Below, one piece after another: positions 2,549 to 64,000 of a DNA stretch of 64,000 bases; positions within the stretch are counted from its first letter, which is position 1, and every line of letters begins with the position of its first letter. The stretch is taken from positions 8,688-72,687 of the IMG/VR virus record IMGVR_UViG_3300021326_000217; one strand, 5' to 3'. This DNA comes from a virus. Its lineage: Duplodnaviria > Caudoviricetes. The translations under genes were made by a program, and so were the position numbers. The notes below the pieces were generated by a model. That model saw only the letters and a program-made list of their open reading frames with translations, was not told the origin of the DNA and searched no databases.

Positions 2549-2587
2549 AAGGCACAAAAAATCCGTCTTTCAGAAAGGATGAGAAGA

Positions 2588-2779
2588 ATGAAACACATTC
2601 TACAAATAAGTGTTTCAAAAAAGCCCGTCAATCGTGGAATTGTCGCTTGTAGGACAGTTACGGTGAGAGAACGGTTAATGCGTTTTCTATTTGGAAAACC
2701 ACAGAAATTGACGGTCATTGTCCCAGGAGACAGTGTTCAGGAACTATCCATTAAAGAGATTGGAGGTGCGGTCACATGA
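2588..2779 (+). CDS. Small hypothetical phage protein
   Basis: ORF track 2579..2779; SD GAAAGGA favours ATG 2588. Confidence 0.65.
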   Translation: MKHILQISVSKKPVNRGIVACRTVTVRERLMRFLFGKPQKLTVIVPGDSVQELSIKEIGGAVT

Positions 2780-3108
2780 GCAGAGTGAAACTACTCCTTG
2801 ATGTTATTTCCGACCTGCGCTCTCTTGCCGACAGCGTGGAGGCGGTCGCAAACGCAATGGCTGATCCGCCCATGACCGAGCCGAAAAAGGAAACCGCTCC
2901 GAAGCAGAAGACGAAAGCGGATGCTAAAACCGAAACAGTGGGATTTGAGAAGCTGTTTGAGGTTTTGAAAAAGCTCTCGGAGGACGGTTTCAGAGCAGAG
3001 GTGAAGGCACTGCTTACCAAGTACGGTGTTCCGAAACTCAGCGAACTCCCGAAAGACCAGTATGCGGCGGTGCTTGCCGAAGCGGAGGAAATCAGGGATG
3101 GGAAATAA
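2776..3108 (+). CDS. Hypothetical phage replication-module protein
   Basis: Overlap-coupled to both neighbours; C-terminal VKALLTKYGVPKLSEL..DQYAAVLAEA motif typical of this module. Confidence 0.75.
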   Translation: MSRVKLLLDVISDLRSLADSVEAVANAMADPPMTEPKKETAPKQKTKADAKTETVGFEKLFEVLKKLSEDGFRAEVKALLTKYGVPKLSELPKDQYAAVLAEAEEIRDGK

Positions 3109-14157: not shown

Positions 14158-15407
14158 AAACAACAACCGAAATGGAGCTTGTTTCTATTGAGAAGCTCGT
14201 TCCTTATGTGAATAACGCCCGTACCCATTCACCTGCACAGATTACCAAACTGCGCTCGTCTCTGCGTGAATTCGGATTTATCAACCCCGTTATAATCGAC
14301 AGGGATTTTAATGTTATAGCAGGTCACGGCAGAATTATGGCGGCGAAAGAAGAAGGCATTACGGAAGTGCCGTGTGTTTTTGCCGACTACTTAACCGAGG
14401 CACAGAAAAAAGCATATATCATTGCAGACAACCGCATGGCTATGGATGCAGGTTGGGACGAAGAACTCCTGCGAGTAGAAATTGAAGCTCTGCAGGGCAT
14501 GGATTTTGACCCGTCTCTGACAGGCTTTGACGAGAAGGAACTCGCCACACTCTTTAATAATGGCATAGAAGCAAAAGACGATGACTTTGATGTGTCGGCA
14601 GAACTTGAAAAGCCGCCGCTGACACGAAACGGTGATGTTTGGATTTTAGGAAAGCACCGTCTCGTTTGCGGTGATAGTACAAAGGCAGAAACCTTTGAAG
14701 CTCTGATGCAAGGCGAAAAGGCAAACCTTGTTATAACTGACCCTCCGTATAATGTCAATTATGAAGGCTCGGCAGGAAAAATCAAAAATGATAATATGGC
14801 TGACGATAAATTTTATAACTTCCTGCTTGATGCCTTTAAGAATACGGAAGCGGCGATGGCTGACGATGCGAGTATTTATGTTTTCCATGCCGACACCGAG
14901 GGCTTGAATTTCAGGAAGGCTTTTCAAGACAGCGGTTTTTATCTTTCAGGTACTTGTATATGGAAGAAGCAATCGCTTGTTCTCGGTCGCTCCCCGTATC
15001 AATGGCAACATGAGCCTATCCTTTTCGGTTGGAAAAAGAAAGGCAAGCACCAGTGGTACACGGGGCGAAAAGAATCGACCATTTGGGAATTTGACAAACC
15101 CAAGAAAAATGCCGACCATCCGACCATGAAGCCGATTCCGCTCCTTGCATACCCGATTACAAATTCAAGTATGTCCAATTGCATCGTGCTTGACCCGTTT
15201 GGTGGAAGCGGCTCGACCCTTATCGCCTGTCAGCAGACGGACAGAATTTGCCGTACCATTGAATTGGACGAGAAATTCTGCGATGTCATCGTGAAACGGT
15301 ATATTGAACAGGTCGGCTCGGATGATGAAGTCAAGGTTATCAGAGATAATCAGACTATACCATACAAAGATATACACGACAGCAATGAGGAAATCCCTCT
15401 GTTTTAA
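14154..15407 (+). CDS. ParB-N-domain DNA methyltransferase (N6-A/N4-C, beta class)
   Basis: N-terminal PYVNNAR...IAGHGR (ParB-like); TDPPYN catalytic motif; HPTMKP; VLDPFGGSGST SAM-binding motif. Confidence 0.92.
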   Translation: MKTTTEMELVSIEKLVPYVNNARTHSPAQITKLRSSLREFGFINPVIIDRDFNVIAGHGRIMAAKEEGITEVPCVFADYLTEAQKKAYIIADNRMAMDAGWDEELLRVEIEALQGMDFDPSLTGFDEKELATLFNNGIEAKDDDFDVSAELEKPPLTRNGDVWILGKHRLVCGDSTKAETFEALMQGEKANLVITDPPYNVNYEGSAGKIKNDNMADDKFYNFLLDAFKNTEAAMADDASIYVFHADTEGLNFRKAFQDSGFYLSGTCIWKKQSLVLGRSPYQWQHEPILFGWKKKGKHQWYTGRKESTIWEFDKPKKNADHPTMKPIPLLAYPITNSSMSNCIVLDPFGGSGSTLIACQQTDRICRTIELDEKFCDVIVKRYIEQVGSDDEVKVIRDNQTIPYKDIHDSNEEIPLF

Positions 15408-15539: not shown

Positions 15540-16232
15540 ATGACAACGACCAATGCAAACATAAAGTTTAATGTCACAGGCGCAAAGCGCAAAGAACTCG
15601 TAAGTCTTATTGCAAACTTCACAGGGTGCGAAGCAAAGTACAAAGGCGCACCGAGCTTTGCCTACGAGGTGGACTACTTCAGCATTGACAAAAACGGAAC
15701 GCTTATATTTGATGACAGAGCCGACAGCGAGGTTATTGAAAGACTGCTCGAAATGCTCTACGACAACAGCTTCGTTGCAGAGGAAAGCGAAGCTGAAACC
15801 GACCAGCCCCAAGTAGAAGCCACAGGGCTTACGGTCGAGATACCGCTTGATAAGGTGAATGTTGGAAACCTTACAAACCTGCTTGAATCAAAAGGCGAGC
15901 TTATAAAGGAAGCACTCGGAATAAGCGATATACGCATAGAGCTTTTGGAAGACCGAGTTACATTCCCGTGGTTTGGTGACATTGAGCCGAGCGATGCAAA
16001 GGCTTATACAGAATTCATCGCCGCTCTATGCGCACACTCGAAAAAGCTCACGAGAATCAACGCTGTGGAAACAAAAGCAGAAAACAAAAAATACGCATTC
16101 CGCTGTTTCCTCCTGCGCCTCGGCTTTATCGGGACGGAATATAAGGAAACGAGAAAAATCCTGCTCCGCAACCTCGAAGGAAGCTCCGCTTTCAAAAGCG
16201 GTAAGAAAAAAGAGGTGCAGAACAATGGCTGA
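15540..16232 (+). CDS. Hypothetical phage protein (often labelled virulence-related) with the C-terminal KYAFRCFLLRLGFIG motif
   Basis: ORF track; first gene of cassette 1; SD GGAGG. Confidence 0.75.
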   Translation: MTTTNANIKFNVTGAKRKELVSLIANFTGCEAKYKGAPSFAYEVDYFSIDKNGTLIFDDRADSEVIERLLEMLYDNSFVAEESEAETDQPQVEATGLTVEIPLDKVNVGNLTNLLESKGELIKEALGISDIRIELLEDRVTFPWFGDIEPSDAKAYTEFIAALCAHSKKLTRINAVETKAENKKYAFRCFLLRLGFIGTEYKETRKILLRNLEGSSAFKSGKKKEVQNNG

Positions 16233-16443
16233 TAAGTTTTTCACAACTACCAAATGTGACCGTTGCGGAGGCTCGCTTGAAAGCGGCAGAATAATGTCCA
16301 TGTTCAATGAGGATTGCATTTGTATGGACTGTAGTAAGAAGGAGCGAGAGCTTCCCGAATTCAAGCAAGCCGCCGAAGCCGAGCTCGCCGAAATCAAGCG
16401 TGGAAACTACAATTTCAAGGGCATCGGATACCCCGAAAAATAG
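16225..16443 (+). CDS. Small Zn-binding protein (72 aa; CDRC...CICMDC)
   Basis: C-terminal part of ORF 15973..16443; SD GAGGTG before ATG 16225. Confidence 0.75.
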   Translation: MADKFFTTTKCDRCGGSLESGRIMSMFNEDCICMDCSKKERELPEFKQAAEAELAEIKRGNYNFKGIGYPEK

Positions 16444-16577
16444 CTGTAATATACACAATTTTAGCCTTGAAAGATTGTGTAGTATATAGGTCAGAATTGA
16501 CTTGATATATACCCTTTTCAGAGGTAATATGTGACTACAAAAAGAACAGAAAACACTTTTGAAAAGGAGTAAAAACC

Positions 16578-17519
16578 ATGAACGAAAAAACAAGAAACTT
16601 TATCGAGGAAATGAAAAAGCAGACCATCGGGATTGAAATTGAGATGGCAAACATTACAAGAGAAAAAGCCTGCAGAACGGTCGCAAAATACTACGGCACG
16701 GAAAGCACAGTAAAACATGACGGCGGCGGCTATGACACTTGGAGTTGCAAGGACACCAAAGGCAGGACTTGGAAGATAACGAGGGACGTTAGCATACAGG
16801 CACGGACGGACAGCGAAAAAGCAGAGCTTGGAACACCCATCCTTCACTACGATGACATTGAGGACTTGCAGGAAATCGCAAGGCAGTTACGCCACGCAGG
16901 TGCGGTTTCCAACCCACAGCACGGATGCGGTGTACATTGTCACATCGGTGCAGACGGACACACAGCAGGAACGCTCCGAAACCTCGCAAACATCATGGCA
17001 AGCCACGAAAGCCTTTTGACAAACGCATTAAGCCTTGACAGAAGCCGCATAAACAGCTACTGCAGACAGGTCGACACAAACTTCCTTACAAGGCTGAACA
17101 GAAGGAAGCCAAGGAGCATGATGGCACTTGCGGACATTTGGTACGCTGACAACAATGAGTACCGAGGCGCACATTACAACCACACACGCTACAGAATGCT
17201 AAACCTCCACGCAACCTTTACAAAAGGAACGGTTGAATTCCGACTTTTCCAATTCGACAACCCCACGGAGGAACGCAGAGGCGGCATACACGCAGGACAG
17301 CTTAAAAGCTACATTCAGCTTTGCCTTGCACTTTCCCAAATGGCAAAAACACAGAAAACAGCAAGCCCGAAGCCACAGCAAACCGAAAACCCGAAATACG
17401 CAATGCGAACTTGGCTCCTCCGCCTCGGATTTATCGGTGACGAATTCAAAACAGCAAGAGACCTCTTTACAAAGCGACTTGACGGGGACACAGCCTTCAG
17501 AAACGGCAGACCTGCATAA
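16578..17519 (+). CDS. Putative amidoligase (COOH-NH2 ligase-like)
   Basis: TIGIEIEM, WKITRDVSI, ELGTPIL, CGVHCHIG, RYRMLNLH and GTVEFRLF motifs. Confidence 0.85.
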   Translation: MNEKTRNFIEEMKKQTIGIEIEMANITREKACRTVAKYYGTESTVKHDGGGYDTWSCKDTKGRTWKITRDVSIQARTDSEKAELGTPILHYDDIEDLQEIARQLRHAGAVSNPQHGCGVHCHIGADGHTAGTLRNLANIMASHESLLTNALSLDRSRINSYCRQVDTNFLTRLNRRKPRSMMALADIWYADNNEYRGAHYNHTRYRMLNLHATFTKGTVEFRLFQFDNPTEERRGGIHAGQLKSYIQLCLALSQMAKTQKTASPKPQQTENPKYAMRTWLLRLGFIGDEFKTARDLFTKRLDGDTAFRNGRPA

Positions 17520-17592
17520 AGCAGAAACCCCGACACCCGACCGCTACGGCGGTCTTAAGGTGGTAGAAGACGATTTGAAAGGAGATTTTTTT

Positions 17593-18060
17593 ATGGCAAA
17601 AAGAAAGTACATCGCATACGGGAGCAACCTCAATGTTCAGCAAATGAAATGGCGATGCCCACACGCAAAAATTATGGGAACGGGTGAACTTAAGGATTGG
17701 AGGCTTCTTTTCAAAGGAAGTAAAACGGGAGCATACCTTACCATAGAAAAGTGCGAAGGCTATAGCGTACCCTTTGCGGTATGGGAGGTCAACGCAACGG
17801 ACGAGGCGGCACTTGACCGCTACGAGGGATTTCCCACCTTCTATTACAAGCAGGAGCTTCCCTTCGAGTACACGGGTATAAGGACAGGCAGAACACACAA
17901 AACCAAAGGCTTCGTTTACATTATGCACGAGGACAGACCTATCGGAATTCCCTCAAAGCATTATGTTGAAGTATGCGCCACAGGTTATATGACCTTCGGT
18001 TTTAACTACGAGCGCATTCTTGAATCACTCCGCTACAGCGAGGAGGTGACGAAGGAATGA
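17593..18060 (+). CDS. Gamma-glutamylcyclotransferase-like (AIG2/GGCT) protein
   Basis: YIAYGSNL...ALDRYEGFP..Y; SD AAGGAG before ATG 17593. Confidence 0.88.
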   Translation: MAKRKYIAYGSNLNVQQMKWRCPHAKIMGTGELKDWRLLFKGSKTGAYLTIEKCEGYSVPFAVWEVNATDEAALDRYEGFPTFYYKQELPFEYTGIRTGRTHKTKGFVYIMHEDRPIGIPSKHYVEVCATGYMTFGFNYERILESLRYSEEVTKE

Positions 18061-18257
18061 AGAACGGAACACATCCCGAAACCGTATGCCCGAAATGCGG
18101 CATGGTTTATTATGAAGCACCTGCACTTTCAAGAACCGACAACAAAACACTCATCTGTCCCGATTGCGGCATCCGTGAAAGTTTGGCGGCATTCGGTCTT
18201 GGAGCGGAAGAGCAGGAACATATCATAAGAGCCATTCATGGCAGACACAAAGCGTAA
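18057..18257 (+). CDS. Small Zn-ribbon protein (CPKC...CPDC)
   Basis: ORF track; ATGA overlap with GGCT. Confidence 0.7.
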   Translation: MKNGTHPETVCPKCGMVYYEAPALSRTDNKTLICPDCGIRESLAAFGLGAEEQEHIIRAIHGRHKA

Positions 18258-18269
18258 GGAGGAGCGACA

Positions 18270-18572
18270 ATGACAAAAAATGAGTTATACGACCAAATCA
18301 CAGAACAGTATTATGAATTCATCGCAGGGCTGAAAAAGCAAACGGCTTCAGAGCTTATTAAAAACGCTGAGCTTATTGCAACGACCAAACAGTTATATAA
18401 GTTTATCAAACTTAACAAGCCGTTCAGCGATGATGACACTGAATACCTTTCCCGAATCAAACGACCGCTTATAGTACTTTCAGAAGTATACAACGAAATA
18501 AGCGGCATTGACTGTGAAGTGTTTGACCGCTTGATGTTTGAGGGCAAAGGTCATGGGCTGTTTGAAGAGTGA
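18270..18572 (+). CDS. Hypothetical protein
   Basis: ORF track; SD GGAGGAG. Confidence 0.7.
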   Translation: MTKNELYDQITEQYYEFIAGLKKQTASELIKNAELIATTKQLYKFIKLNKPFSDDDTEYLSRIKRPLIVLSEVYNEISGIDCEVFDRLMFEGKGHGLFEE

Positions 18573-46326: not shown

Positions 46327-47160
46327 ATGCAGATTATAGAAAGCATTATGACTAAAAACCCGTGCTATACGGCAGGACGGAGGATCACGGTAAAGGGGCT
46401 TATGCTCCATTCGGTCGGCTGTCCGCAACCAAATGCACAGGTTTTTATCAGCAATTGGAATCGCTCCGATTATAAAAGTGCCTGTGTTCACGGCTTTATT
46501 GACGGGAACACGGGCATTGTTTATCAGACCCTTCCGTGGAATCACCGAGGTTGGCACGGCGGCGGCTCTTCCAATAACACGCATATCGGCGTGGAAATGT
46601 GTGAGCCTTCCTGTATCAAGTACACGGGAGGCTCGTCCTTTACCTGCTCAGATAAGGCAAAGGCGCAGGAGAGCGTAAGGACTACATACAGAGCAGCAGT
46701 AGAATTGTTTGCAATGCTCTGTAAAAGGTTTAACCTTAATCCTTTGAAGGATATTGTTTCACACCGTGAAGGACACGCCCTCGGTATTGCCACCAATCAC
46801 GGCGATCCCGAACATCTGTGGAAGGGTGTCGGGCTTAATTACACTATGGACGGATTCAGATCCGATGTTAAAAATAAAATGGAAAATAAGGAGGACGAAT
46901 CTATGACTACAGAGGAAAGAAACAAATTTAATGCGCTTGTCGATGCGGTCGGTACTCTTACCGAGAAGGTCGATAAACTGGAGCATAAAATGATTTATGC
47001 TTGGGTAGACGACAATATGCCCGACTGGGCAAAGCCTACCATTACCAAGCTCATGGCAAAAGGCTATCTTAAAGGTGATGAGGAAGGTAAACTTAACCTT
47101 GACGATAATATGCTTCGTATGCTCGTAATAAACGACCGTGCTGGAATATACGGTGAATAA
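46327..47160 (+). CDS. Endolysin, N-acetylmuramoyl-L-alanine amidase with a C-terminal cell-wall-binding domain
   Basis: MLHSVG, CVHGF, RGWHGG, IGVEMCE, SHREG, HGDP; C-terminal PDWAKPTITKL. Confidence 0.92.
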   Translation: MQIIESIMTKNPCYTAGRRITVKGLMLHSVGCPQPNAQVFISNWNRSDYKSACVHGFIDGNTGIVYQTLPWNHRGWHGGGSSNNTHIGVEMCEPSCIKYTGGSSFTCSDKAKAQESVRTTYRAAVELFAMLCKRFNLNPLKDIVSHREGHALGIATNHGDPEHLWKGVGLNYTMDGFRSDVKNKMENKEDESMTTEERNKFNALVDAVGTLTEKVDKLEHKMIYAWVDDNMPDWAKPTITKLMAKGYLKGDEEGKLNLDDNMLRMLVINDRAGIYGE

Positions 47161-47170: not shown

Positions 47171-47211
47171 AATGCCTATCGAATTTCTTGTTCGATAGGC
47201 ATTATTTTTTT
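47171..47211. terminator. Bidirectional intrinsic terminator after the lysis genes
   Basis: AATGCCTATCGAA-TTTCTTG-TTCGATAGGCATT followed by a T-run and preceded by As. Confidence 0.8.
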
Positions 47212-47367
47212 GAGGTATTGTATAAAAAATAGAACAAACCAAAATGTAATTTAATTTTTCAAAAATGTAATTTGTACCATTCACAAAGCCCCTGTTTATG
47301 CTACTTCTCGCACTTTCACATACTCCAAGATGTACGATTTTTTCAAAAAGGTTTTTCTGACCTTTTT

Positions 47368-48240
47368 TTATTCTTCCTCATCTTCTTCTGGATAATCGGT
47401 GAATGAATCGTCCGCACCATCAAAATCGTCATCAATTACTTTGAACTCCTTTGCATATAGCTTGTTCATAAACAGCCTTCCTGCGTTGGTTTTTTTCTTA
47501 CCGTTATATGCTATAATCATTGCTTCTGCAAAACCCAATGACCCAGGGCGTCTTTCTTTTGCATTTCGACATAACAATTTTGGAGAAATCACACCTAACC
47601 TTTCCTGAAATACCTCATCATCAAATATATCCTTGTAAACCACAACCAGTTTTGCAATTGCATTTAAAATATTGCCTGAAAAAGAATTAACATCACCTTC
47701 CCAAGTCCCGACACAAAGACGTATTACATGATTTAGAACGTGTATTCCGTATTTGTAGTATATGGATTCAATTGTTGCTATAGCACTTATAACGCCAGGA
47801 GCCTTTGTAGTGCCTATTGTAAGTCCATATGATTCAATAAGTTCTTTTATCATCTGCTGATCATGATTTCCTGCTTCTACGTTTGCCTCAAAGACCTCAA
47901 TTGGTTGCAGTTTTTTTGTGTATTTCATCTGATTGGCAAAAATATCTGCCTCGTGTTTATAAGATAAATCGTCATAAACCATACACCATACAGGCGTTTC
48001 TCTCGAACCTGAAACCAAAAATATTGTTTCTATCGTATGTTGTCCGTCAAAAACATAATTAATACCATCCCTGCGGCTGACTTTTACAGGATTGATTTGA
48101 TTTATATCAAAGTTTTCAGCGGTTTTTTCAACGTGGTGCATTGATAAATTACGCTGATAGTTTTGATTTGAAACAAGGTTTTTTATAGGTATTTTTTCAA
48201 AATGGACATTTGGTACAAACGCAGAAAAATCCTCCATCAT
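47368..48240 (-). CDS. ParB/Srx-fold protein (DUF6551-like, DGQH motif)
   Basis: NQNYQRNL...NPVKVSRRDG..YVFDGQHT. Confidence 0.8.
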   Translation of the reverse strand: MMEDFSAFVPNVHFEKIPIKNLVSNQNYQRNLSMHHVEKTAENFDINQINPVKVSRRDGINYVFDGQHTIETIFLVSGSRETPVWCMVYDDLSYKHEADIFANQMKYTKKLQPIEVFEANVEAGNHDQQMIKELIESYGLTIGTTKAPGVISAIATIESIYYKYGIHVLNHVIRLCVGTWEGDVNSFSGNILNAIAKLVVVYKDIFDDEVFQERLGVISPKLLCRNAKERRPGSLGFAEAMIIAYNGKKKTNAGRLFMNKLYAKEFKVIDDDFDGADDSFTDYPEEDEEE

Positions 48241-49193
48241 TTAGCCTCCTTTATTAATTGCAACATTTCATCAATCGTTTTCTTTAAATCCCACAAAGAA
48301 TTAATGAGCTTATTTTTTGCAGTAACTGATATGCCACTTAAATTGGCATTTGCTTCAGTGCGCTTAATCGAACTAATCCAAGAAGGCATGGTGAGCGTTA
48401 ATTCTGTAACTTCGGCATCGGGGTCAAAGTCAGGCATCTGTTTCACTTGCGGCGTTTCTTGTGAAGTAATAACTTTGTTTATTGCATCTCGTGACTTATT
48501 ATACTTAAAGTACGGGTTTTTACTTCGATTTAAACTCTTATTAACTTTTTGCAAATCACCAGACGGGAGTTTCGACATATCAACAATGTTGTTATGCGAA
48601 ATTTTGTATCTGCCAGATAGTATTTTAGGAACCAACTCAGGCTCCTTCGTTCCTATTTCCTCAAGAGCCCTTGTATATATGGCATACTTCATCACAGTAG
48701 CGGCTGACAGGTGGTTTTCATCCGCAATTCGCTGTGCTGTTTTGTGTGCTGATATCGAGTCAACTTCTTTTCGTTTTAAATCATCAGGTGATAAGTCATC
48801 TGTGTCATAATACTGATTTAGACCATTAGGATTTTTCCTGCTACTGATTATTTTTTCTGTTTCGTACTGCATACCTATCAAAAATTTCCTTGTTTCATTG
48901 GATATATTCCTTCTGCCAAGCTGATTCGCACAAATCCAAGCTATCGCATCTTCTTTGCTTTCAAAAAACATTTCATGGGTTTTAAACGGTATACTGTGCT
49001 TATGACAAATTTCGTATCTGTTATGACCGTCAACAATAAAGCCATTCCAAGTAATAATAGGGTCACGACAACCGTCATTTAATATGTTTTCTTCAAGCTG
49101 AAGGTACTCTTGTCTGTGAAGCGGTCGGATAAGATTTTTAAATTCTTTTTTGATTTTCAGTGTCTTCAGCGATTCAGTTTGCATCATCTTCAC
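48237..49193 (-). CDS. ParB-N-like domain protein with C-terminal HTH
   Basis: LEENIL.DGCRDPIITWNGFIVDGHNRYEIC...NQLGRRN; KTAQRIADENHLSAATV. Confidence 0.75.
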   Translation of the reverse strand: MKMMQTESLKTLKIKKEFKNLIRPLHRQEYLQLEENILNDGCRDPIITWNGFIVDGHNRYEICHKHSIPFKTHEMFFESKEDAIAWICANQLGRRNISNETRKFLIGMQYETEKIISSRKNPNGLNQYYDTDDLSPDDLKRKEVDSISAHKTAQRIADENHLSAATVMKYAIYTRALEEIGTKEPELVPKILSGRYKISHNNIVDMSKLPSGDLQKVNKSLNRSKNPYFKYNKSRDAINKVITSQETPQVKQMPDFDPDAEVTELTLTMPSWISSIKRTEANANLSGISVTAKNKLINSLWDLKKTIDEMLQLIKEAK

Positions 49194-49566
49194 CTTCCTG
49201 TAAATCTATTAATTCAAGCGTATCAAGGCTAAAAACAGCCATGTTCTGTTCTTCGACAAAAGAGCCTTTCAGTCGATACGAACACATATAATTAAGTCCT
49301 TCAACGAGTTGAGCCAGTATTTGCAAAAAGCCTTTACTGTATAATTCGATTGAATTATCAGACAGCATATCAAGCGAACTAATACGCTCTGCGTCTTCGT
49401 GAGGCTCAAAATCTGACAAGCCACGGATTGCAATTAGTTTTTCGCTTGGATTCACCAATACCTGTATGTATTTTGGCTCTCCCATAGTGTGCAACACCTT
49501 TTTATGAATCCGTAGCCTCATTTTTTTAAGGTCAATTGATATCGTCATTGGTAATTCTGTACTCAT
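49174..49566 (-). CDS. Uncharacterised ~130-aa single-domain protein, paralogous to domains in the two upstream genes
   Basis: YIQVLVNPSEKLIAIR aligns with AQILINSEKKILALR and IELLVNPITRKFAIR. Confidence 0.75.
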   Translation of the reverse strand: MSTELPMTISIDLKKMRLRIHKKVLHTMGEPKYIQVLVNPSEKLIAIRGLSDFEPHEDAERISSLDMLSDNSIELYSKGFLQILAQLVEGLNYMCSYRLKGSFVEEQNMAVFSLDTLELIDLQEGEDDAN

Positions 49567-50450
49567 ACGCTTACTGCCTCCTGTGAAATACTATTCTCTT
49601 CTGAAGTCTCATTATTAATCGCTGAACTATTATCAGCAGGAACAGGGCTATTATCAGCAGGAACAGAGCTATTATCAGCGAGAACAGGACTGTTTTCAAC
49701 AGGAGCAGGGCTATTATCAACGGGGGCAGGTAAATAATCATTAGATGGTTTATTATGATCTGTACCTTTTATTGAATATACTGCATAACCGTCCACAATA
49801 TTAATTTTCATTGAATCCTTGTGTTCAAGATAAGATACACCGAACTGATCTTTCCAATTAGTTGGGTATGCCGCTATCCGTGATATCGTCCGTTTCTCGC
49901 CCTCCGCTGATGTTCTTTTATAAACTTCGGTTGATGTTAGGTCAAAAGCTAAAAGGTATTCACCGTTTGAGTGTATGATATTACCAAGAATTTTATATTT
50001 GTCATCGCTATTCCAACCCATCATGTCAACAATCATGGCAAAAAACACTCTGCCTGTTACCTGTCGGGTTTTCCTTTTTCCATCAGGCGCAGTATTGCAC
50101 CATTTAAAAGAGTCTCTTGTGTTTTCATAGCAGGGACGAAGGGCAAGGATTTTCTTTTCACTGTTAATCAAAATTTGGGCATATTCTGTCTGCGGAAACT
50201 TTGAAAGACAAGCAGCATTAACATAGAATTTGTAGTTATTGAAGGTTACCGCAGGCTCCCTTAAATGAGCAAAAAACTCCCTGCGCACAACCTGAAAACC
50301 GCTAAAGTCAAAATCTGTTCGCATCTCCAATATTTCATCGTTTTCGGTTACCGTTGGCACAAAATTTGATTCAGTTGTGTTTGGTTGTCCTGTAGCGTTT
50401 TCAAAGATACCAGGCTGTTTCAATCTTTCACTTTCAAATTGATTCATCAT
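49563..50450 (-). CDS. Uncharacterised protein with the shared ~130-aa domain and a C-terminal 7-aa repeat tail
   Basis: ORF track; FDFSGFQVVRREFF...GWNSDDKYKILG. Confidence 0.78.
   Translation of the reverse strand: MMNQFESERLKQPGIFENATGQPNTTESNFVPTVTENDEILEMRTDFDFSGFQVVRREFFAHLREPAVTFNNYKFYVNAACLSKFPQTEYAQILINSEKKILALRPCYENTRDSFKWCNTAPDGKRKTRQVTGRVFFAMIVDMMGWNSDDKYKILGNIIHSNGEYLLAFDLTSTEVYKRTSAEGEKRTISRIAAYPTNWKDQFGVSYLEHKDSMKINIVDGYAVYSIKGTDHNKPSNDYLPAPVDNSPAPVENSPVLADNSSVPADNSPVPADNSSAINNETSEENSISQEAVSV
49621..49730. repeat. Five-copy 21-bp coding tandem repeat (P(V/A)DNSS/P-type heptapeptide)
   Basis: ACAG(G/A)GCTATTATCAGCAGGA-like units visible in the DNA and in the translation. Confidence 0.85.
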
Positions 50451-52398
50451 TACTTTCCTCCTTTAGGTTCAGTCCTTGTAATTCTTGTGAAATATACGCT
50501 TTCAGCGTATCAAAACCTGTCACATTTATTTTTTTACCCGTATCTATAAATTGACCTTCCATACGCAATTTCCAGTCTTTTTCACTTTGAGAATTTAACT
50601 CTTCATAGGTTTTTTCATGCAAATAATAATCCTTACCAAAATTGTTCACCCATTCTTCGGGAATAGCCTTTATACGTTTTCCGTATGGAGTAAGCGGTTT
50701 ATATGTTATAAACCCTCCCGTTACTTCTTCCGAGTAACTCGGAATGAGGTATGGCTTTAGAAAAGCCTCCGTATTTTCGGTGTCAAAAATATATGCTATG
50801 TCATTGCCTTTTTCATATAAAGTACCGATAATGCGGTAGTTATAATCTGTATTCCACCCGAACAAAGAGTACAAAGTTTCATAAAAAGCGGTAATTGGGA
50901 TGACTTTCGGCTCGTATTTTTTGTTGTTTTTCTTAGAACATATTACACTTTGCCGATTTGTTGTTTCTGCTGTTCTGATAGCAAACTTTCTCGTGATTGG
51001 ATTAACAAGCAATTCAATACAGTTTTTCTCTGCGAGCTTTTTAACACATAATGAACTTAATTTAATAGCTTTATCAGAGAAACTAATAAACGGTTTTCCG
51101 TAATTATCGAATAACTCTGTTCTTGCAACTTCAAAACCTCGTAAATCGAAATCACCTGTTGACATTTCAATATTGATTTCTTCTTCCTCTTTAAAAAGAG
51201 GATTTTCTTCTGGGCTGTATCCACCAGCGGATGCTTTCATATAGTCGTCTTCTTTGAATGCCGCCCAGCGTGGATATATAATTACGAAGCCCTGCAATAT
51301 TCCGCTTTTTATAACCTTTAATTCGGGCAAAAATGAGCGGTTTCTGTACTTGGCATTATCAAGCATTTTTTGAACGGCAATAAAATCTTCTCTTGAAACT
51401 ATTGCCTCATGGTGATTAAAATATCTGCTTTGAGGTCGCTCACCTCTATTTTTCTTCGATTTATGTTCTCTGTAATTTGGCGTGAAAGTTTTTCGTGTAA
51501 GGACTTCACCACAATGACGCTCATTCCTTAATATTTGAACTACACCACCAGAAGTCCATTTAATATTACCAAGGTATGACCGTCTCCCCAATGCATTTAG
51601 GGTTTCAGCTATTTGTTTTGCAGAATAACCGTATAAATACATATAAAATGCAAGTTTTACTGTCGGAGCTTCTGCAGGATTAATAATCAGTTGTCCCTCT
51701 TCATCATGTGTATAGCCGAGCAGTTTAGGAGTAAGCGGTATACCATTATCAAGTCTCATTCGGAGCGAAGTTTCCATGCTACGGCTTCTTATGTGCGATT
51801 CTTCTTCAGCGACAGTAGCTAAAAAGGTAAGTGCCATTTGAGATTCGTCCTTTAGAGAAAAAATGGATTCTGTCTCGAAAAACACTCCTACTGGTGGATT
51901 TAACTCTGCCAGTGTTCTTGTATAGCCCACAGTGACAAGCACATCTCTTGCAAAACGTGATACACTTTTTGTGATGACAACATCGATTTTTCCAGCAATA
52001 CAATCATCCATCATTTTTTGAAATTCGGGTCTGTTTTTTACTGTGCCGCTTATTCCTTCATCAGCATAGATCTTTACAAGCGTCCAGTTGGGACGTTCCT
52101 GTATGTACTGATTATAATACCTTTTTTGGAGTTCAAAGGACGTTGTTTGCATTTCATCTTCCGTAGAAACTCTTACGTATATAGCTACCCGTTGATGAAT
52201 GCTTGTGTCATGAAAATCAAATCTTTGTTTTTCGGGAAAGTACTCATAATTATCTTCATCAACTTTTGTATTCATCCTGCTACGGATTTTCTCTTTGTTA
52301 AGCTCCTTTAATCGCCGCTTTTCGTTATCGATCACTATTACCACGTCCTTCGCTGTCGATTGCCTTTGTATCCGTACTATTAAATCTGTTTCTTTCAT
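50434..52398 (-). CDS. Large serine recombinase with an extra C-terminal uncharacterised domain
   Basis: RVAIYVRVST (catalytic Ser), YADEGISG, TKSVSRFAR, AEEESHIRS, ILRNERHCG. Confidence 0.9.
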   Translation of the reverse strand: MKETDLIVRIQRQSTAKDVVIVIDNEKRRLKELNKEKIRSRMNTKVDEDNYEYFPEKQRFDFHDTSIHQRVAIYVRVSTEDEMQTTSFELQKRYYNQYIQERPNWTLVKIYADEGISGTVKNRPEFQKMMDDCIAGKIDVVITKSVSRFARDVLVTVGYTRTLAELNPPVGVFFETESIFSLKDESQMALTFLATVAEEESHIRSRSMETSLRMRLDNGIPLTPKLLGYTHDEEGQLIINPAEAPTVKLAFYMYLYGYSAKQIAETLNALGRRSYLGNIKWTSGGVVQILRNERHCGEVLTRKTFTPNYREHKSKKNRGERPQSRYFNHHEAIVSREDFIAVQKMLDNAKYRNRSFLPELKVIKSGILQGFVIIYPRWAAFKEDDYMKASAGGYSPEENPLFKEEEEINIEMSTGDFDLRGFEVARTELFDNYGKPFISFSDKAIKLSSLCVKKLAEKNCIELLVNPITRKFAIRTAETTNRQSVICSKKNNKKYEPKVIPITAFYETLYSLFGWNTDYNYRIIGTLYEKGNDIAYIFDTENTEAFLKPYLIPSYSEEVTGGFITYKPLTPYGKRIKAIPEEWVNNFGKDYYLHEKTYEELNSQSEKDWKLRMEGQFIDTGKKINVTGFDTLKAYISQELQGLNLKEESNDESI

Positions 52399-52945
52399 TC
52401 TCTGGCAAAAACTCTATATCTCGCAAATCGTTTCGATAATAGGATGCGAGGGTGAACAAATCTTCAGATATAAAGTAAATACCTATAGGGTGTTCTTGTG
52501 CGGCAAGAAGTCTTGAACAAAGGGTTATCTCGTGGATCTTCCTTGATACGTTGGATACTTTTTGTGTGATAATTAAATCCACTTTACCTTCCATAGCATC
52601 GTTAAGGAGCCTGCGCCAATTAGGTGCGTTTTCCATATTTGGTGCTGACTGCCCTTCATCTACATAAAAATCAACTAATGTCCAATTAGGGCAAAGAGCG
52701 ATTGTGTCTGCGAAATCTTTTTTATGATAAGCTAAATAGTTGTCATATTTGGTTTGGTTGAAATATCTTATGTAAATTCCTACCTTGTATGGAACTGCAG
52801 TGTTGGGACGTTCATGCCTTATACTTTGCAACCAAGCCTTATGTTCGGCTAATTTCATTGCTTTTTCTGATTCATCACCAAAGGTAAGCGAAAATTGCGG
52901 TGTTGCAATTTCGCTCAGTTTGTTATAGATTTCGAGTTCGTTCAT
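52325..52945 (-). CDS. Small resolvase-like protein lacking the catalytic serine
   Basis: KVGIYIRYF (instead of Y.RVS), FYVDEG, LLNDAMEGKVDLIITQKVSNVSR. Confidence 0.8.
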   Translation of the reverse strand: MNELEIYNKLSEIATPQFSLTFGDESEKAMKLAEHKAWLQSIRHERPNTAVPYKVGIYIRYFNQTKYDNYLAYHKKDFADTIALCPNWTLVDFYVDEGQSAPNMENAPNWRRLLNDAMEGKVDLIITQKVSNVSRKIHEITLCSRLLAAQEHPIGIYFISEDLFTLASYYRNDLRDIEFLPENERNRFNSTDTKAIDSEGRGNSDR

Positions 52946-53013
52946 TGAGTATTTCCTCCAACTTAAAATATCTTACCGTGTATTTTATAGTCAGTTGGAT
53001 AATATGTAAATAT

Positions 53014-53040
53014 CCTGACAGTCATATTCTGACTATCAGG
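53014..53040. promoter_or_regulatory. Inverted-repeat operator upstream of the reverse recombinase operon
   Basis: CCTGACAGTC-N7-GACTATCAGG, 9/10 palindromic. Confidence 0.55.
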
Positions 53041-53103
53041 ATAAGTTTTTGAAAATTTTTTTATTTTTTGGTACAAAAAAAAGTGAGAACGGTTAATTCT
53101 CAC

Positions 53104-53463
53104 TTAATAATCTTCGTTATCTTTAGGTTTGTGTAATGTAGTTTTTATTTGTGAAACTATCTGCATTATCGATTCTATCTCAGTTGGCGAGCAATCATCG
53201 AGAAGCTCTGAAAACTCTCGTTTATATATGCTATTCACCTCAGGAATATCAGAACGCAATATTAAATCTGCAGAAACCTGAAGAGCCTCCACAATCTTTG
53301 CAAAAGTAGTAAGCCATATATTACTCTTGCCTAATTCAATATCACTTACATTGGAAGGTGAAATATGTGCAGTAAAAGCAAGGTCGTTTTGTGTCATTCC
53401 TTTTGATAGACGTATTTCTCGTATTCTCTTTCCTATTTCTTTTAAAGCTGTTTTATCATCCAT
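53104..53463 (-). CDS. XRE-family HTH regulator
   Basis: IGKRIREIRLSKGMTQNDLA...SDIELGK; the ORF track start is 53517 but ATG 53463 is more plausible. Confidence 0.85.
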   Translation of the reverse strand: MDDKTALKEIGKRIREIRLSKGMTQNDLAFTAHISPSNVSDIELGKSNIWLTTFAKIVEALQVSADLILRSDIPEVNSIYKREFSELLDDCSPTEIESIMQIVSQIKTTLHKPKDNEDY

Positions 53464-53602
53464 GCTTAAAACCTCATATATCCAATCGACTATATTTAAA
53501 GTATATTTTATCATCAAGTGGCGGTGTGCGGAACAGTTAAGTGGCTGTATTTCAGCCGATAAGGTATAATTATAGTGAATATTTTTTTAGGAGGTTACAA
53601 TA

Positions 53603-53959: not shown

Positions 53960-54246
53960 ATTATTATATGCAATTTCAAATATAAGCACCATAAACCGTC
54001 AGTCATATATCAAACGGACAGTATAAATACATTTTCACTCTTTTCAATTACAAAAATGCAAAAATGAATTACATTTTCATGAAAACCAATTATGTTTTTG
54101 TAAAATACGAGATTTTCGGGAAGATATATGTTATAATTACGTTGGCTATTCTTATGACTGAACGGCAGTTTGCGAGGGCTCGACAGGTGTTGTATAACAA
54201 AGATATTTTCAAAAGGCACTTCCCTTATAGAGGTAGGTATTTTTAT

Positions 54247-59152: not shown

Positions 59153-59177
59153 CCTGTAATTTTTTACAGGTTTTTTT
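59153..59177 (+). terminator. Intrinsic terminator ending the cargo operon
   Basis: CCTGTAA-TTTT-TTACAGG followed by a T7 run. Confidence 0.7.
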
Positions 59178-59179
59178 AT

Positions 59180-59220
59180 TAGACCGTCAGATTTCACCCG
59201 TTCTCGTGGCTGTATTATGA
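59180..59220 (+). promoter_or_regulatory. 41-bp element (copy B), putative promoter for the sigma-like factor
   Basis: 38/41 identical to 2508-2548. Confidence 0.55.
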
Positions 59221-59248
59221 GAGTACAATTACGGAAAGGGTTTTAATT

Positions 59249-59829: not shown

Positions 59830-59855
59830 GTGAGACGAAAACGGAGGTGATCATC

Positions 59856-61142
59856 ATGGATAGAATAATCGAAAAGGTGGAATTTATAACACCTATTGAA
59901 AAGCCTGCGACAAGAGTTGCGGCATACGCTCGTGTTTCAAGTGGAAAAGACGAAATGCTACATTCTCTTTCTGCCCAAGTCAGCTATTACAGTTCTCTAA
60001 TACAAAACCATATAGGTTGGCAGTATTCAGGGGTGTATGCTGACGAAGCAAAAACAGGCACAAAAGACAGCAGACCGAATTTTCAAAGGCTTCTTTCCGA
60101 TTGCAGAGCAGGAAATATTGATGTGGTAATTACAAAATCAATTTCACGATTTGCGAGGAATACCGTATCGCTTTTGAACAGCATACGGGAGTTGAAAGAG
60201 TTGGGAATTGATGTGTACTTTGAAGAACAAAACATTCATACCATAAGCGCAGAAGGTGAGCTTTTAATAACGCTTCTTGCATCTTATGCACAGGAAGAAA
60301 GCCGCTCCGCAAGTGAGAATCAGAAGTGGCGTGTTAATAAGAACTTTCAAGAGGGAATCCCCTGGAATCAGACACTTTACGGATATCGTTTTGAAAAAGA
60401 CCATTTCGTGATTGTTCCAGAAGAAGCTAAGGTTATACGGCTTATTTATGATTTGTATTTGTCAGGTATGGGCTTATATGCAATTGGAAAAGAACTGACG
60501 AATCGTGGCATTTATGCAAAGAAAAACAAGCAATGGAGTAAAACTTCTCTTTACAAAGTACTTTTAAATTATAACTATACAGGAAATCTACTGCTTCAGA
60601 GAACATTCCGCAAGGACTACCTTACCAAAGAAACACTGCAAAATAACGGTGAATTACCCATGTACCATGTCGAGAATTCACATGAAGCCATTATTCCCAT
60701 AGAGAAGTTTAACGAAGTCCAGGAGGAACGAAAACGCAGGACTATTATTGCAAACAGGCAAGCAAGCTCACGAGTTTTCATGCCTTTTTCAGGAAAAGTA
60801 TTCTGCGGCTTATGCGGTAAATCATACAGACGAAAAACCACAGTAACGGGGATAGTATGGATTTGCAAAACTTATAACATTTATGGTAAAGCGGAATGCC
60901 CTTCAAAGCAAATCCCAGAAGAGAAACTCCTATCTCTCATTTCACAGGTAACGAATGATTGTGCTGAAATAAAACGCATTGAAATTATGCCGAACAACAT
61001 TGTGAAATTCACAATGGCTGATAGCTCTGAAAAAGAGCTTATATGGCAAGATCGTTCACGGAGCGAGAGTTGGACACCCGAAATGAAGGAAGCGGCTCGT
61101 AAAAAAACACTTGAAAGGATACAAAAATCATGCAAAGAGTAG
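59856..61142 (+). CDS. Large serine recombinase A (with Zn-ribbon)
   Basis: RVAAYARVSS, YADEAKTG, TKSISRFAR, AQEESRS, CGLCG...C...C. Confidence 0.92.
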   Translation: MDRIIEKVEFITPIEKPATRVAAYARVSSGKDEMLHSLSAQVSYYSSLIQNHIGWQYSGVYADEAKTGTKDSRPNFQRLLSDCRAGNIDVVITKSISRFARNTVSLLNSIRELKELGIDVYFEEQNIHTISAEGELLITLLASYAQEESRSASENQKWRVNKNFQEGIPWNQTLYGYRFEKDHFVIVPEEAKVIRLIYDLYLSGMGLYAIGKELTNRGIYAKKNKQWSKTSLYKVLLNYNYTGNLLLQRTFRKDYLTKETLQNNGELPMYHVENSHEAIIPIEKFNEVQEERKRRTIIANRQASSRVFMPFSGKVFCGLCGKSYRRKTTVTGIVWICKTYNIYGKAECPSKQIPEEKLLSLISQVTNDCAEIKRIEIMPNNIVKFTMADSSEKELIWQDRSRSESWTPEMKEAARKKTLERIQKSCKE

Positions 61143-62707
61143 TAACAGTAATTCCACAAACACTTAACCCACTAACAAGAACATCGCTCATGAATCCAAA
61201 ACAACGAAGAACAGCGGCTTACGCTCGTGTATCAACCGACAGCGAAGAACAGCTTACAAGCTACGAAGCCCAGGTTGATTATTACACGAAAATGATAAAT
61301 AACAAACCTGAATGGAGTTTTGTAAAGGTTTATACGGATGAAGGTATATCAGGCTTGAACACAAAAAATAGAGAGGGATTTAATCAAATGATAAACGATG
61401 CCTTAAATGGCAAGATTGATCTCATCATCACTAAATCTGTCAGCCGATTTGCAAGAAACACTGTTGACAGCCTTACGACCATACGCAAACTGAAAGATAA
61501 AGGAATTGAGGTTTATTTTGAAAAAGAAAACATTTATACCCTGGATAGCAAGGGTGAACTGTTTATAACCATAATGTCCTCGCTTGCCCAAGAAGAGAGT
61601 AGAAGCATATCAGAAAACGTTACCTGGGGACATAGAAAACGGTTTTCAGATGGAAAACTAACCCTCCCGTATGGTAAGTTTCTCGGCTACGAAAAAGGCA
61701 ATGACGGCTTTCCAAAGATAGTAGAAAGCGAAGCGAAAATTGTCCGAAAAATTTACAGTATGTTTATAGACGGGAAAACGCCTGGTGCAATAGCAAGGGA
61801 GTTGACTAACGAGGGCATTCCTTCACCTGCAGAGGGAAAAAGATGGCATCAAACCACCATAAGGAGCATACTTACAAATGAAAAATATAAAGGCTCTGCA
61901 TTACTGCAAAAGAGTTTTACAGTAAATTTTCTGACTAAAAAGAAAAAGAAAAATGAAGGTGAAGTACCACAATACTACATTGATAAAAGCCATGAGGCAA
62001 TAATCGAGCCTGCCGAATTTGAACTGGTACAACAGGAAATGAAGCGGCGTGAGAAAATCGGCAAACGATATAGCGGCAACTCTGTTTTCTCAAGCCGCCT
62101 GATATGTGCTGATTGCGGAGGTTTTCTCGGCTCTAAAGTATGGCAATCAAATACAAAGTACAGAAAAACAGTATGGCAATGTAACAACAAATTTAAAAAC
62201 GAACATAAATGTGAAACTCCTCATCTGACAGAAAACGAAATAAAGGAAAGGTTTATGTCAGCGGTTTCCATTCTGTTTGACAACCGAGAACAACTCATTG
62301 ATGATTGCCGATTGATGCAGGAAGCTCTAACCGACACAACATCCATTGATCAGGAAATAGAAAAGCTAAACATGGAAATCGAAATCTTAAACGGGCTTAT
62401 AAGAAAAAGCATCGAGGAAAATGCGATGAAGCCTCTCAACCAAGATGAATACAATCAGAAATACAACACTTATAACGAGCGATACCAAAAATTAAATTCA
62501 AGGATAAATGCTTTGAATGATACGAAAAAGAAACGGCAAATGAAACAAGCCGCAATTGGGGCATTCATGTTTGAGGTCATGGAGCTACCAGAGCCTCCGT
62601 CAGCTTTTGACAACAAATTATGGATTGCATCGATTGACTATGCTACCGTCTACAAAGACGGACGGATTGTTTTCAAATTTATCAATGGTGCGGAAATTGA
62701 AGCGTAG
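61130..62707 (+). CDS. Large serine recombinase B (with Zn-ribbon and coiled coil)
   Basis: RTAAYARVST, YTDEGISG, TKSVSRFAR, AQEESRS, CADCG...C...C. Confidence 0.93.
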   Translation: MQRVVTVIPQTLNPLTRTSLMNPKQRRTAAYARVSTDSEEQLTSYEAQVDYYTKMINNKPEWSFVKVYTDEGISGLNTKNREGFNQMINDALNGKIDLIITKSVSRFARNTVDSLTTIRKLKDKGIEVYFEKENIYTLDSKGELFITIMSSLAQEESRSISENVTWGHRKRFSDGKLTLPYGKFLGYEKGNDGFPKIVESEAKIVRKIYSMFIDGKTPGAIARELTNEGIPSPAEGKRWHQTTIRSILTNEKYKGSALLQKSFTVNFLTKKKKKNEGEVPQYYIDKSHEAIIEPAEFELVQQEMKRREKIGKRYSGNSVFSSRLICADCGGFLGSKVWQSNTKYRKTVWQCNNKFKNEHKCETPHLTENEIKERFMSAVSILFDNREQLIDDCRLMQEALTDTTSIDQEIEKLNMEIEILNGLIRKSIEENAMKPLNQDEYNQKYNTYNERYQKLNSRINALNDTKKKRQMKQAAIGAFMFEVMELPEPPSAFDNKLWIASIDYATVYKDGRIVFKFINGAEIEA

Positions 62708-63454: not shown

Positions 63455-64000
63455 GTGATGAGGCGCAGAATGAGTATAAAACTGAAACCATTATTGCCTG
63501 AAGACCACGACAAGTTTATTCGAGACAATCAAGAGGCATTTAATTACGGAGCTTTACAAGAATTCGGTTTAAGGGATGACCATTTTGAAGAAAACGGTGA
63601 AATAATATCAAAAGAAACAATAGAAAATGCTATTCATGACGGCGAAGCATACCGTATTATATGTGATAATGAAAACATCGGCGGTATGGTAGTTAAGATA
63701 GACGGCGAGCGTGGAAATCTTGATTTATTGTTTGTTTCCCCGTCTGCACACAGCAAGGGCATAGGTTATAAGGCGTGGTGCGAAATGGAAAAGCTCCACC
63801 CCGAAGTAAAAGTTTGGGAAACTGTAACACCGTATTTTGAAAAGCGGAATATCCATTTTTATGTCAATCGCTGTGGCTTTCACATTGTAGAGTTTTTTAA
63901 CAGCCATCACCCCGATCCGAATGAAACCGATACGGACAACGGCGAATTAAACGATCAGTTCCCCGATGGTATGTTCCGCTTTGAAAAAATAATGAAATAG
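63455..64000 (+). CDS. GNAT-family N-acetyltransferase
   Basis: LDLLFVSPSAHSKGIG (motif A) and NIHFYVNRCGF; ends with TAG at the window edge. Confidence 0.88.
   Translation: MMRRRMSIKLKPLLPEDHDKFIRDNQEAFNYGALQEFGLRDDHFEENGEIISKETIENAIHDGEAYRIICDNENIGGMVVKIDGERGNLDLLFVSPSAHSKGIGYKAWCEMEKLHPEVKVWETVTPYFEKRNIHFYVNRCGFHIVEFFNSHHPDPNETDTDNGELNDQFPDGMFRFEKIMK

Follow-up and report, generated by a model that had tools for sequence, protein, structure and literature searches.

Gene Content of the Cassette

The DNA analysed here (hereafter the window) covers 64 kb of an IMG/VR provirus that is 72.7 kb long (record IMGVR_UViG_3300021326_000217), and this report concerns a cassette made up of six overlapping minus-strand genes, g1 to g6, and a divergent pair of XRE regulator genes, xreA and xreB. 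The cassette is a serine-recombinase system whose subunit architecture is without precedent and which includes a new domain family, referred to below as X. The six open reading frames (ORFs) were found head-to-tail between 47368 and 52945, in agreement with a first-pass annotation of this DNA, and are listed together with the XRE pair.

52325..52945, minus strand: g1, 206 aa, a resolvase catalytic domain alone (Pfam Resolvase, E = 1.8e-7)
50434..52398, minus strand: g2, a 654-aa ORF (633 aa in its database form, start 52335) with catalytic, Recombinase and C-terminal X domains
49563..50450, minus strand: g3, 295 aa, with a disordered N-terminus, an X domain (~45–215) and a low-complexity tail of 7-aa repeats
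49174..49566, minus strand: g4, a 130-aa minimal X-domain protein
48237..49193, minus strand: g5, 318 aa, with a probable ParB/Srx-like N-terminus, a helical middle and an acidic C-terminal motif
47368..48240, minus strand: g6, 290 aa, DUF6551 (DGQH motif), a ParB-fold-associated family
53104..53517, minus strand: xreA, a Cro/CI-type helix-turn-helix (HTH) gene on the operon strand (HTH_3, E = 1e-12); the probable start at 53463 gives 119 aa
53603..53959, plus strand: xreB, a Cro/CI-type HTH gene that heads the early genes (HTH_3, E = 6.1e-17)

Successive genes overlap by 74 nt (g1/g2; 11 nt when g2 starts at 52335), 17 nt (g2/g3), 4 nt (g3/g4), 20 nt (g4/g5) and 4 nt (g5/g6), and the six are translationally coupled. 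The Pfam matches to HTH_3 uphold the divergent XRE pair described earlier, and relatives of xreA are 118–122 aa in length. The operon lies in the lysogeny region, between a lysin gene and the XRE pair. Nearly all genes of the window are on the plus strand (replication, a cassette array, terminase, head, tail, a 1623-aa fibre, holin and lysin), and g1–g6 with one XRE gene constitute its sole long minus-strand block.

Catalytic and Non-Catalytic Recombinase Subunits

The g2 protein matches the Pfam domains Resolvase (PF00239, E = 9e-26) and Recombinase (PF07508, E = 2.3e-22, residues 241–347), as expected from its first designation as a serine recombinase. Catalytic motifs were compared in an alignment of 53 g2 sequences (that of the window and its relatives) and of 46 g1 rows (45 distinct homologues and that of the window). 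The motifs YvRVSTD, DEGISG and SRFARN and the E-helix are kept across the g2 sequences. Judged from these motifs, g2 is a catalytically competent recombinase, and no other subunit has a complete serine-recombinase active site.

While g2 has the catalytic and Recombinase domains of a large serine recombinase, it lacks the usual Zn-ribbon/coiled-coil module, and domain X is found in its place at approximately residues 412–600. No match to Zn_ribbon_recom (PF13408) was obtained for g2 in Pfam at E 0.1; the two other recombinases of the window match this model with E = 1e-12 and 7.5e-10. Among the best 120 of 645 relatives of the g2 C-terminus, all carry the Recombinase domain and nearly all the Resolvase domain in proteins of ~632 aa, the few without Resolvase being shorter forms, and a Zn-ribbon domain is listed for none. 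The best NCBIfam matches of g2 are CcrB and XisF, at the domain level.

The g1 protein aligns with residues 64–182 of g2 at 32% identity (BLASTP, E = 8e-21), and an hhalign comparison of the g1 family with the N-terminal part of g2 gives 99.5%. Across the aligned g1 family, the nucleophilic serine is replaced by phenylalanine (YIRyFNQT), both arginines of the SRxxR motif are gone, and neither an E-helix nor a DNA-binding domain is present. An active small serine recombinase is defined by a catalytic serine and a C-terminal HTH, and g1 has neither. The FNQT motif is kept in at least 90% of the 46 sequences. Since g1 conserves motifs of its own, it is a maintained pseudoenzyme and not a decaying gene, and the initial description of a dead resolvase is apt.

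The X Domain

The first-pass annotation had proposed that a single domain occurs three times in the operon, at the C-terminus of g2 and in g3 and g4. Profile alignment, set beforehand as the test of this claim, found the three to be homologous. By BLASTP, the g2 C-terminus matches g3 with E = 4e-20, and the pairs with g4 are weak (E = 2e-4 and 1e-3). When family profiles were aligned with hhalign, the g2 C-terminus matched g3 at 99.9% (E = 5.5e-32, 170 columns) and g4 at 97.4% (E = 9.4e-12, 103 columns), and g3 matched g4 at 95.1% (E = 3.4e-8). Control alignments of g4 with g1, g5 and g6 remained below 1%.

No match to the X family was found in Pfam, NCBIfam, PADLOC or PHROG, and profile searches of the PDB with X, g5 and g6 returned nothing meaningful. 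A search of 1.84 billion cluster representatives with the X profile identified 3,172 clusters at E ≤ 0.001, of which 1,662 were at E ≤ 1e-10; the family amounts to ~3,200 clusters at 50% identity. The g3 protein by itself has more than 1000 homologues without Pfam matches. The longer X members that were checked are mostly fragments of Recombinase–X fusions, and no other fusion was found among longer proteins searched with g3, which is weak evidence on this point. In the BFVD collection of predicted viral structures, X matches unnamed phage proteins of 110–130 aa.

The tail that follows X in g3 is encoded in part by five tandem 21-nt repeats (49605–49740), each specifying a 7-aa repeat rich in P, A, D, N and S. 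The g3 protein is 295 aa in the window and ~250–260 aa in its relatives, and the tail is therefore of variable length.

A first AlphaFold2 calculation on full-length g3 with a shallow alignment scored poorly (predicted local distance difference test, pLDDT = 58) and was replaced by a model of the X domain alone. An input alignment of 120 sequences, drawn from all three paralogue types, gave a model of the g3 X domain with pLDDT = 95.5 and a predicted template modeling score (pTM) of 0.85. The model contains two β-β-α-β-β units, preceded by an N-terminal strand and turn and followed by a C-terminal strand and helix. Similarity between the two halves, as would result from an internal duplication, was not detectable with hhalign.

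A Foldseek search of the PDB with the X model returned nothing below E 0.03. Rows in that search suggesting a likeness to PCNA and other clamps had TM scores of ~0.15 and were dismissed as noise. An exhaustive alignment to 48,161 PDB representatives placed MraZ first (1N0E, Z = 3.4, root-mean-square deviation 4.3 Å over 97 residues), followed by the plant B3 DNA-binding pseudobarrels (Z = 2.3–2.5). Because these Z values are below the scores typical of unrelated models, X has no clear relative among solved folds. The earlier guess of an AbrB/MraZ-like barrel is weakly favored by the β-β-α-β-β order and by MraZ as the top match in the PDB; however, the Z score is only 3.4 and Pfam gives no SpoVT_AbrB or MraZ match. 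An AbrB/MraZ identity may be regarded as a lead provided by the model.

ParB-Like Proteins

Two ParB-fold proteins had been noted at the end of the operon. The assignment holds for g6, which matches DUF6551 over its whole length (Pfam, E = 8.3e-35) as well as the PHROG family of ParB-like partition proteins (E = 2.5e-14), and which by virtue of DUF6551 belongs to a family of the ParB clan. Members of the DUF6551 family are reported to have a ParB-CTPase fold and to bind ATP or CTP (preprint 10.1101/2025.10.10.680097).

For g5, the assignment is only probable. Its family alignment contains DGHNRY and NQLGRRN motifs and a conserved C-terminal DPDAE..LTLTIPSW. PHROG searches gave family 21315 (E = 1.6e-11) and, over 40 residues, a ParB-like family (E = 0.0086), and neighbours in the ESM Atlas are named ParB/Srx. 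No Pfam match and no PDB sequence match was found for g5. No similarity between g5 and g6 is detectable (hhalign, 0.1%).

The window encodes a third ParB-type protein of 422 aa (14139–15407, plus strand) in the replication/early region, which is unrelated to the operon and has a genuine ParB_N domain (PF02195, E = 2.5e-8). The PF02195 model matches this gene and neither g5 nor g6. An hhalign comparison of g5 with it is in register and insignificant (E = 0.066).

A role in partition, also raised in the first-pass annotation, is unlikely since no ParA gene lies within the operon or next to it and plasmids almost never carry the cassette, a single divergent copy having been found in 72,556 plasmid records. 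The g5 and g6 proteins are not ParABS components.

XRE Genes, Promoter and Palindromes

The regulatory features around the operon are as follows.

52982..53010, minus strand: predicted operon promoter, sigma-70-like (TTTACA-17-TAAAAT, 10/12 consensus matches)
53011..53043: site 1, a 33-bp near-perfect palindrome touching the -35 element of the operon promoter on its upstream side
53992..54025: site 2, a degenerate version of site 1 located immediately 3' of xreB, with a good right half and a poor left half
53081–53105: terminator-like hairpin 3' of xreA (terminator scan)
47171..47203: strong hairpin between the lysin gene and g6 (terminator scan)
~47340–47366: weaker AT-rich hairpin
46327–47160: lysin gene, left neighbour of the g1–g6 block

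The strong hairpin is the terminator of the late operon and probably serves the six-gene operon as well.

Across loci, site 1 takes the form TAAACC-N4-GTCA-N6-TGAC-N4-GGTTTA (34 bp). It was found in 97 of 145 loci, as 44 distinct sequences, 40–160 nt upstream of g1 and typically at ~95–105 nt. The outer and inner blocks are invariant; the N4 segments are variable yet mostly symmetric, and the central spacer is 6 nt, or 5 or 7 nt in a quarter of cases. The window holds no second full-strength copy, the other copy being the degenerate site 2. Located ~1 kb from site 1, site 2 matches at least 15 of 20 positions in 67 of 98 distinct loci, as compared to a maximum of 13/20 in control regions inside g2. 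The two palindromes thereby bracket an XRE segment of ~1 kb. In the window, the operon is not flanked by long repeats, either direct or inverted.

Mutual information between the variable N4 of site 1 and each protein column mainly reflected phylogeny and pointed to no particular reader protein. Site 2 was also considered as a P_RE-like promoter reading through xreB into xreA, and this was rejected as a -10 element is present at the right spacing in merely 3 of 67 copies.

Conservation and a Divergent Variant

The operon and XRE pair are colinear in ~170 loci, viral (~90) and genomic (~80). When 93 viral and metagenome loci were searched by tblastn with the eight proteins, the order xreB, xreA, g1–g6 was found in every sufficiently long locus with a single exception, L054. 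A scan of one genome per species identified 172 relatives of g3, and the best 80 of these 172 loci all share the same gene order; they come from Oscillospiraceae, Lachnospiraceae, Christensenellaceae, Anaerotignum, Intestinibacillus and other Clostridia. The genes therefore co-occur as a conserved unit, as had been claimed, in every adequately covered locus but one, and this co-occurrence together with the homologous X domains supports the broader proposal of an uncharacterised unit centred on a recombinase. In L054, a 7.1 kb viral contig, only g3- and g4-like genes are present (2574–3591), and g1, g2, g5 and g6 were undetected despite room upstream. This contig may represent a reduced or rearranged form.

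A divergent variant was identified in two records, L196 (2900–10100 of OY725878.1, a 247-kb plasmid record of Subdoligranulum variabile) and L197 (MT838295.1, a faecal phage contig). Its order is an XRE pair, an AAA_25 ATPase, a g1-like gene, a g2-like gene with X, a g3-like gene, a g4-like gene, an 87-aa ORF and a metallophosphoesterase. The active site of g2 is conserved here too. The g5 and g6 genes and the TAAACC..GTCA palindromes are absent. Since the variant keeps g1–g4 without g5 and g6, the conserved core consists of g1–g4 and the XRE pair, and the ParB-like pair is lineage-specific.

The palindromes and the variant bear on the idea of a purely regulatory or architectural complex, in which ParB-like clamps at the palindromes would silence or loop the immunity region in the manner of KorB/KorA and recombinase chemistry would be used rarely or never. 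The palindromes are operator-like, one abutting the -35 element and the spacer being variable, proteins of the DUF6551 type are reported to bind nucleoside triphosphates (NTPs; preprint 10.1101/2025.10.10.680097), and the variant without g5 and g6 also lacks the palindromes. However, the g2 active site is strictly conserved, in the 53 aligned sequences and in the variant, which argues that catalysis is used, and the persistence of g1–g4 without the ParB-like genes points to the recombinase set as the core. This explanation is considered highly improbable.

Relationship to the Prophage Integrase

The window contains a second set of serine recombinases of canonical composition.

59847–61142: canonical recombinase, Resolvase + Recombinase + Zn_ribbon_recom
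61130–62707: canonical recombinase, Resolvase + Recombinase + Zn_ribbon_recom

Such a pair was present in all five complete relatives examined, and in most relatives it lies directly beside g6; in the window it is located 7 kb from the operon, beyond early genes. In one widespread phage, the sequence common to its contigs ends at the 5' end of the canonical recombinase, which marks the prophage edge. The candidate site beside the operon is intact inside provirus and genomic loci and is not split into attL and attR. From the canonical pair, the position of the prophage edge and the intact site next to g1, it follows that g2 is probably not the prophage integrase.

Beyond the canonical 543-aa recombinase of a widespread relative, the sequence differs between contigs (L008–L013, ~15900–18400). 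This flank often carries pieces of recombinase genes, including Recombinase or Zn-ribbon fragments and an FtsK–Resolvase chimera, which suggests insertion into, or recombination with, the recombinase genes of other mobile elements.

The six proteins could instead serve the canonical pair as an accessory or directionality complex that modulates prophage integration and excision. The pair is adjacent to g6 in most relatives and accompanies the operon in every complete relative examined, and g1 and g2, which share the catalytic-domain fold, could form mixed oligomers with it. Known serine-integrase directionality factors are single small proteins that bind the coiled coil, and g2 lacks this coiled coil. 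Moreover, the pair in the window is 7 kb away behind early genes, and islands without a canonical recombinase, described below, keep the six genes intact. A role of this kind is very unlikely.

Stand-Alone Islands

A block of ~6.7 kb comprising the XRE pair and g1–g6 was found alone between host genes in five species. The five islands share 84–90% nucleotide identity over the block and have unrelated flanks. The block extends from ~35 nt outside the palindrome 3' of xreB to just past g6, and its right border does not coincide in every island. In Anaerotignum neopropionicum DSM 3847 (L121), six intact genes and XRE remnants lie between ordinary host genes, with a sugar kinase, an AraC regulator, an amino-acid permease and a nitronate monooxygenase on one side and non-ribosomal peptide synthetase-type and major facilitator superfamily genes on the other. 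Further islands occur in an Intestinibacillus chromosome and in a metagenome-assembled genome of Clostridiales. The island of Clostridiales UBA12491 (L190) has ilv genes near it and no other recombinase, and that of Firmicutes HGW-21 is followed by two canonical recombinases and then by Sua5 and a P-type ATPase. No other recombinase is found near the L121 and L190 islands, and several islands are ringed by insertion sequence (IS) elements and truncated canonical recombinases. No half-sites and no direct or inverted repeats were found at the island borders.

A segment of L121 (5925–7440) that holds site 2, xreB and the intergenic promoters is inverted relative to the four sister islands. It is followed by ~430 nt of unrelated DNA, and the N-terminus of xreA is damaged. 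The breakpoints are at the cassette end by site 2 and at the xreA start.

The islands raise the prospect of an autonomous integrative element, as had been suggested in the first-pass annotation. Here, the ~6.7 kb cassette would be mobile in its own right: g2 would act as its integrase or transposase, g1, g3 and g4 would provide targeting or directionality, and the phages would be mere carriers. Five species with closely related blocks, roughly coincident ends and unrelated flanks are what such an element would leave, as are the islands L121 and L190 without another recombinase nearby and a left end of the shared block at ~35 nt outside site 2. On the other hand, the borders carry no repeats and the right one varies, the phage cassette always lies by the XRE switch as would a vertically inherited core module, and the IS elements and truncated canonical recombinases around the islands fit prophage remnants. 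The block alone in five species thus speaks for the suggestion and the borders against it, and overall an autonomous element appears quite unlikely. The islands possibly reflect self-mobility or else selective retention in decayed prophages.

Another possibility is a defence or superinfection-exclusion system. In this scenario, the cassette is expressed in the lysogen and recognises a palindromic site on incoming related DNA, and the recombinase or the ParB-like proteins trap, cut or silence it. The cassette lies between the lysis/integrase genes and the repressor, a classic location for prophage exclusion genes, and it shares the strand of the repressor and has a host-type promoter. The six genes intact in decayed or minimal islands without the rest of a phage suggest that the host benefits or that the cassette persists selfishly. 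Proteins of ParB fold are also known from several defence contexts. One of them, DndB, is discussed in a recent preprint (10.1101/2025.10.10.680097). However, no credible PADLOC match was obtained for the six proteins at E 0.1, the sole row being Csx19 (0.031), so that the defence option of the first-pass annotation finds no known defence family behind it. No nuclease, toxin or abortive-infection effector domain was found, and across highly diverse phages and hosts the cassette does not vary in gene content or order, whereas defence hotspots typically carry variable cargo. Defence or exclusion is judged unlikely.

Proposed Function

The interpretation tentatively preferred here, with somewhat less than even confidence, is that g2 is the centre of a site-specific recombination or looping complex that acts on the palindromes as part of a self-contained cassette of the lysogeny region. 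The X domains would be the DNA-reading heads for the palindromes. Dimers of g2, together with the non-catalytic g1, g3 and g4, would come together at the two sites in a regulated complex, either synaptic or looped, and this complex would autoregulate the operon and lock, reset or rearrange the segment containing the immunity switch. The g5 and g6 proteins may be lineage-specific, NTP-binding accessories of ParB fold that load at the same sites or spread from them. Integration and excision of the prophage would be left to the separate canonical Zn-ribbon pair. In the synaptosomes of resolvases, catalysis is controlled by subunits at accessory sites; in the proposed cassette, the accessory subunits would be the products of separate genes.

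This interpretation is based on several findings. The active site is kept in g2 and replaced in g1 across 53 and 46 sequences, X is homologous in g2, g3 and g4, and the nearest folds of a confident X model, weak as the matches are, are DNA-binding β-barrels. The g2-type X is fused to Recombinase in all of the best 120 of 645 relatives, and the gene order, XRE pair included, is fixed across loci. Sites 1 and 2 are conserved in position and controls never reach the score of site 2. Finally, the site is intact in proviruses, five complete relatives have a canonical pair, and the cassette is intact in five stand-alone islands.

Other observations weigh against a g2-centred complex on the palindromes. 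A clean inversion or deletion product of site 1 and site 2 was seen in no locus, and the orientation of the XRE segment relative to g1 is the same in all of ~230 scored loci except L121, although orientation taken from assemblies is a consensus in which minor populations may go unseen. The inverted xreB of L121 is not a clean product of the two sites. A half-site spacer of 5, 6 or 7 nt fits an operator better than the crossover site of a serine recombinase. Sites 1 and 2 of one locus differ in N4, each tending to its own symmetry, which could indicate different binders or a hairpin or cruciform. The match of X to DNA-binding barrels is weak (Z = 3.4), and the XRE proteins or g5 could bind the palindromes in place of X. 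The variant without both palindromes and ParB-like proteins is a hint, from a single case, that the latter read the former.

A stronger version of the g2-centred proposal would be a new class of composite serine recombinase. It would consist of a catalytic subunit and separately encoded pseudo-subunits, one with a dead catalytic domain and two with the DNA-binding domain only, and it would act on palindromes around a CI/Cro-type switch. This version is rather doubtful. If it is true, the decision between lysis and lysogeny, or the persistence of the cassette, would be set by a nucleoprotein lock built by a recombinase and not by repressor concentration alone, and X would offer programmable serine integrases a new module for DNA recognition, one that could take the place of the Zn-ribbon.

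Comparison with Known Systems

With the large serine recombinases, namely phage serine integrases, CcrA/B, TnpX and XisF, g2 shares the catalytic domain, the active-site motifs and PF07508. It differs from them in having a 190-aa domain absent from Pfam and the PDB instead of the Zn-ribbon and coiled coil, and in being encoded together with a dead paralogue of its catalytic domain and two paralogues that consist of the putative DNA-binding domain X only. In addition, the g2 gene lies away from the prophage edge, and proviruses retain its candidate site intact.

In the cassette, the recombinase operon adjoins a short segment that has related palindromes at both ends. By analogy with Tn3/γδ res, Sin and Gin/Hin, the cassette layout recalls the autoregulation of res–tnpR and the arrangement of gix–gin, with two palindromes of which one is at the recombinase promoter. 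In contrast to these systems, accessory roles in the cassette would fall to separate paralogous genes and not to extra copies of the enzyme or to Fis and HU; moreover, no inverted or resolved product is seen and the spacer varies.

The ParB-like genes may be compared to ParB, KorB, Noc and DndB in that g6 is a DUF6551 protein, the g5 motifs are, on the present authors' reading, at the positions of ParB boxes II and III, and palindromes are nearby. Unlike ParB systems, there is no ParA, and two unrelated ParB-like genes stand in tandem inside a recombinase operon and are dispensable in the divergent variant. The X model weakly resembles the MraZ/AbrB barrels in containing β-β-α-β-β twice and in its top structural match, but X has extra conserved N- and C-terminal motifs and its halves show no detectable sequence similarity.

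No description of the operon turned up in the literature searched on DUF6551, Heliusvirales and unusual serine recombinases. New here are the stand-alone ~6.7 kb block, the two conserved palindromes and the variant without ParB-like genes. The X domain constitutes a large family without a Pfam entry, a solved structure or a named function, and the system presents a serine recombinase with an apparently swapped DNA-recognition module and dedicated non-catalytic paralogues. These features bear on the evolution of specificity and control among serine integrases and on their use in genome engineering. If the cassette controls the immunity switch or excludes phages, prophage stability and induction in major gut Clostridia would be affected. 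The conserved palindromes and compact islands make direct experiments feasible.

Phage Context

The closest phages in the databases are uncultured ones of Lachnospiraceae/Oscillospirales that are recorded under Candidatus Heliusvirales. The cassette belongs to prophages of this type, which represent one of the phage lineages with the highest prevalence in the human gut (PMC11283538). The paper defining the order makes no mention of recombinases or ParB.

A direct repeat of 51 nt (86% identity) occurs at 2501–2551 and 59173–59223, 56.7 kb apart. The first copy follows a sigma-70 region-4 gene and precedes the DUF2800/PolA replication genes, and the second precedes a small HTH gene and the canonical recombinase pair. 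The repeat could be a shared regulatory element or be related to the prophage ends. Two genes close to the ends of the window may be phage cargo or belong to host flank: a Y-family DNA polymerase gene (IMS, 451–1761) on the left and, at the right end, a GNAT acetyltransferase gene (63455–64000).

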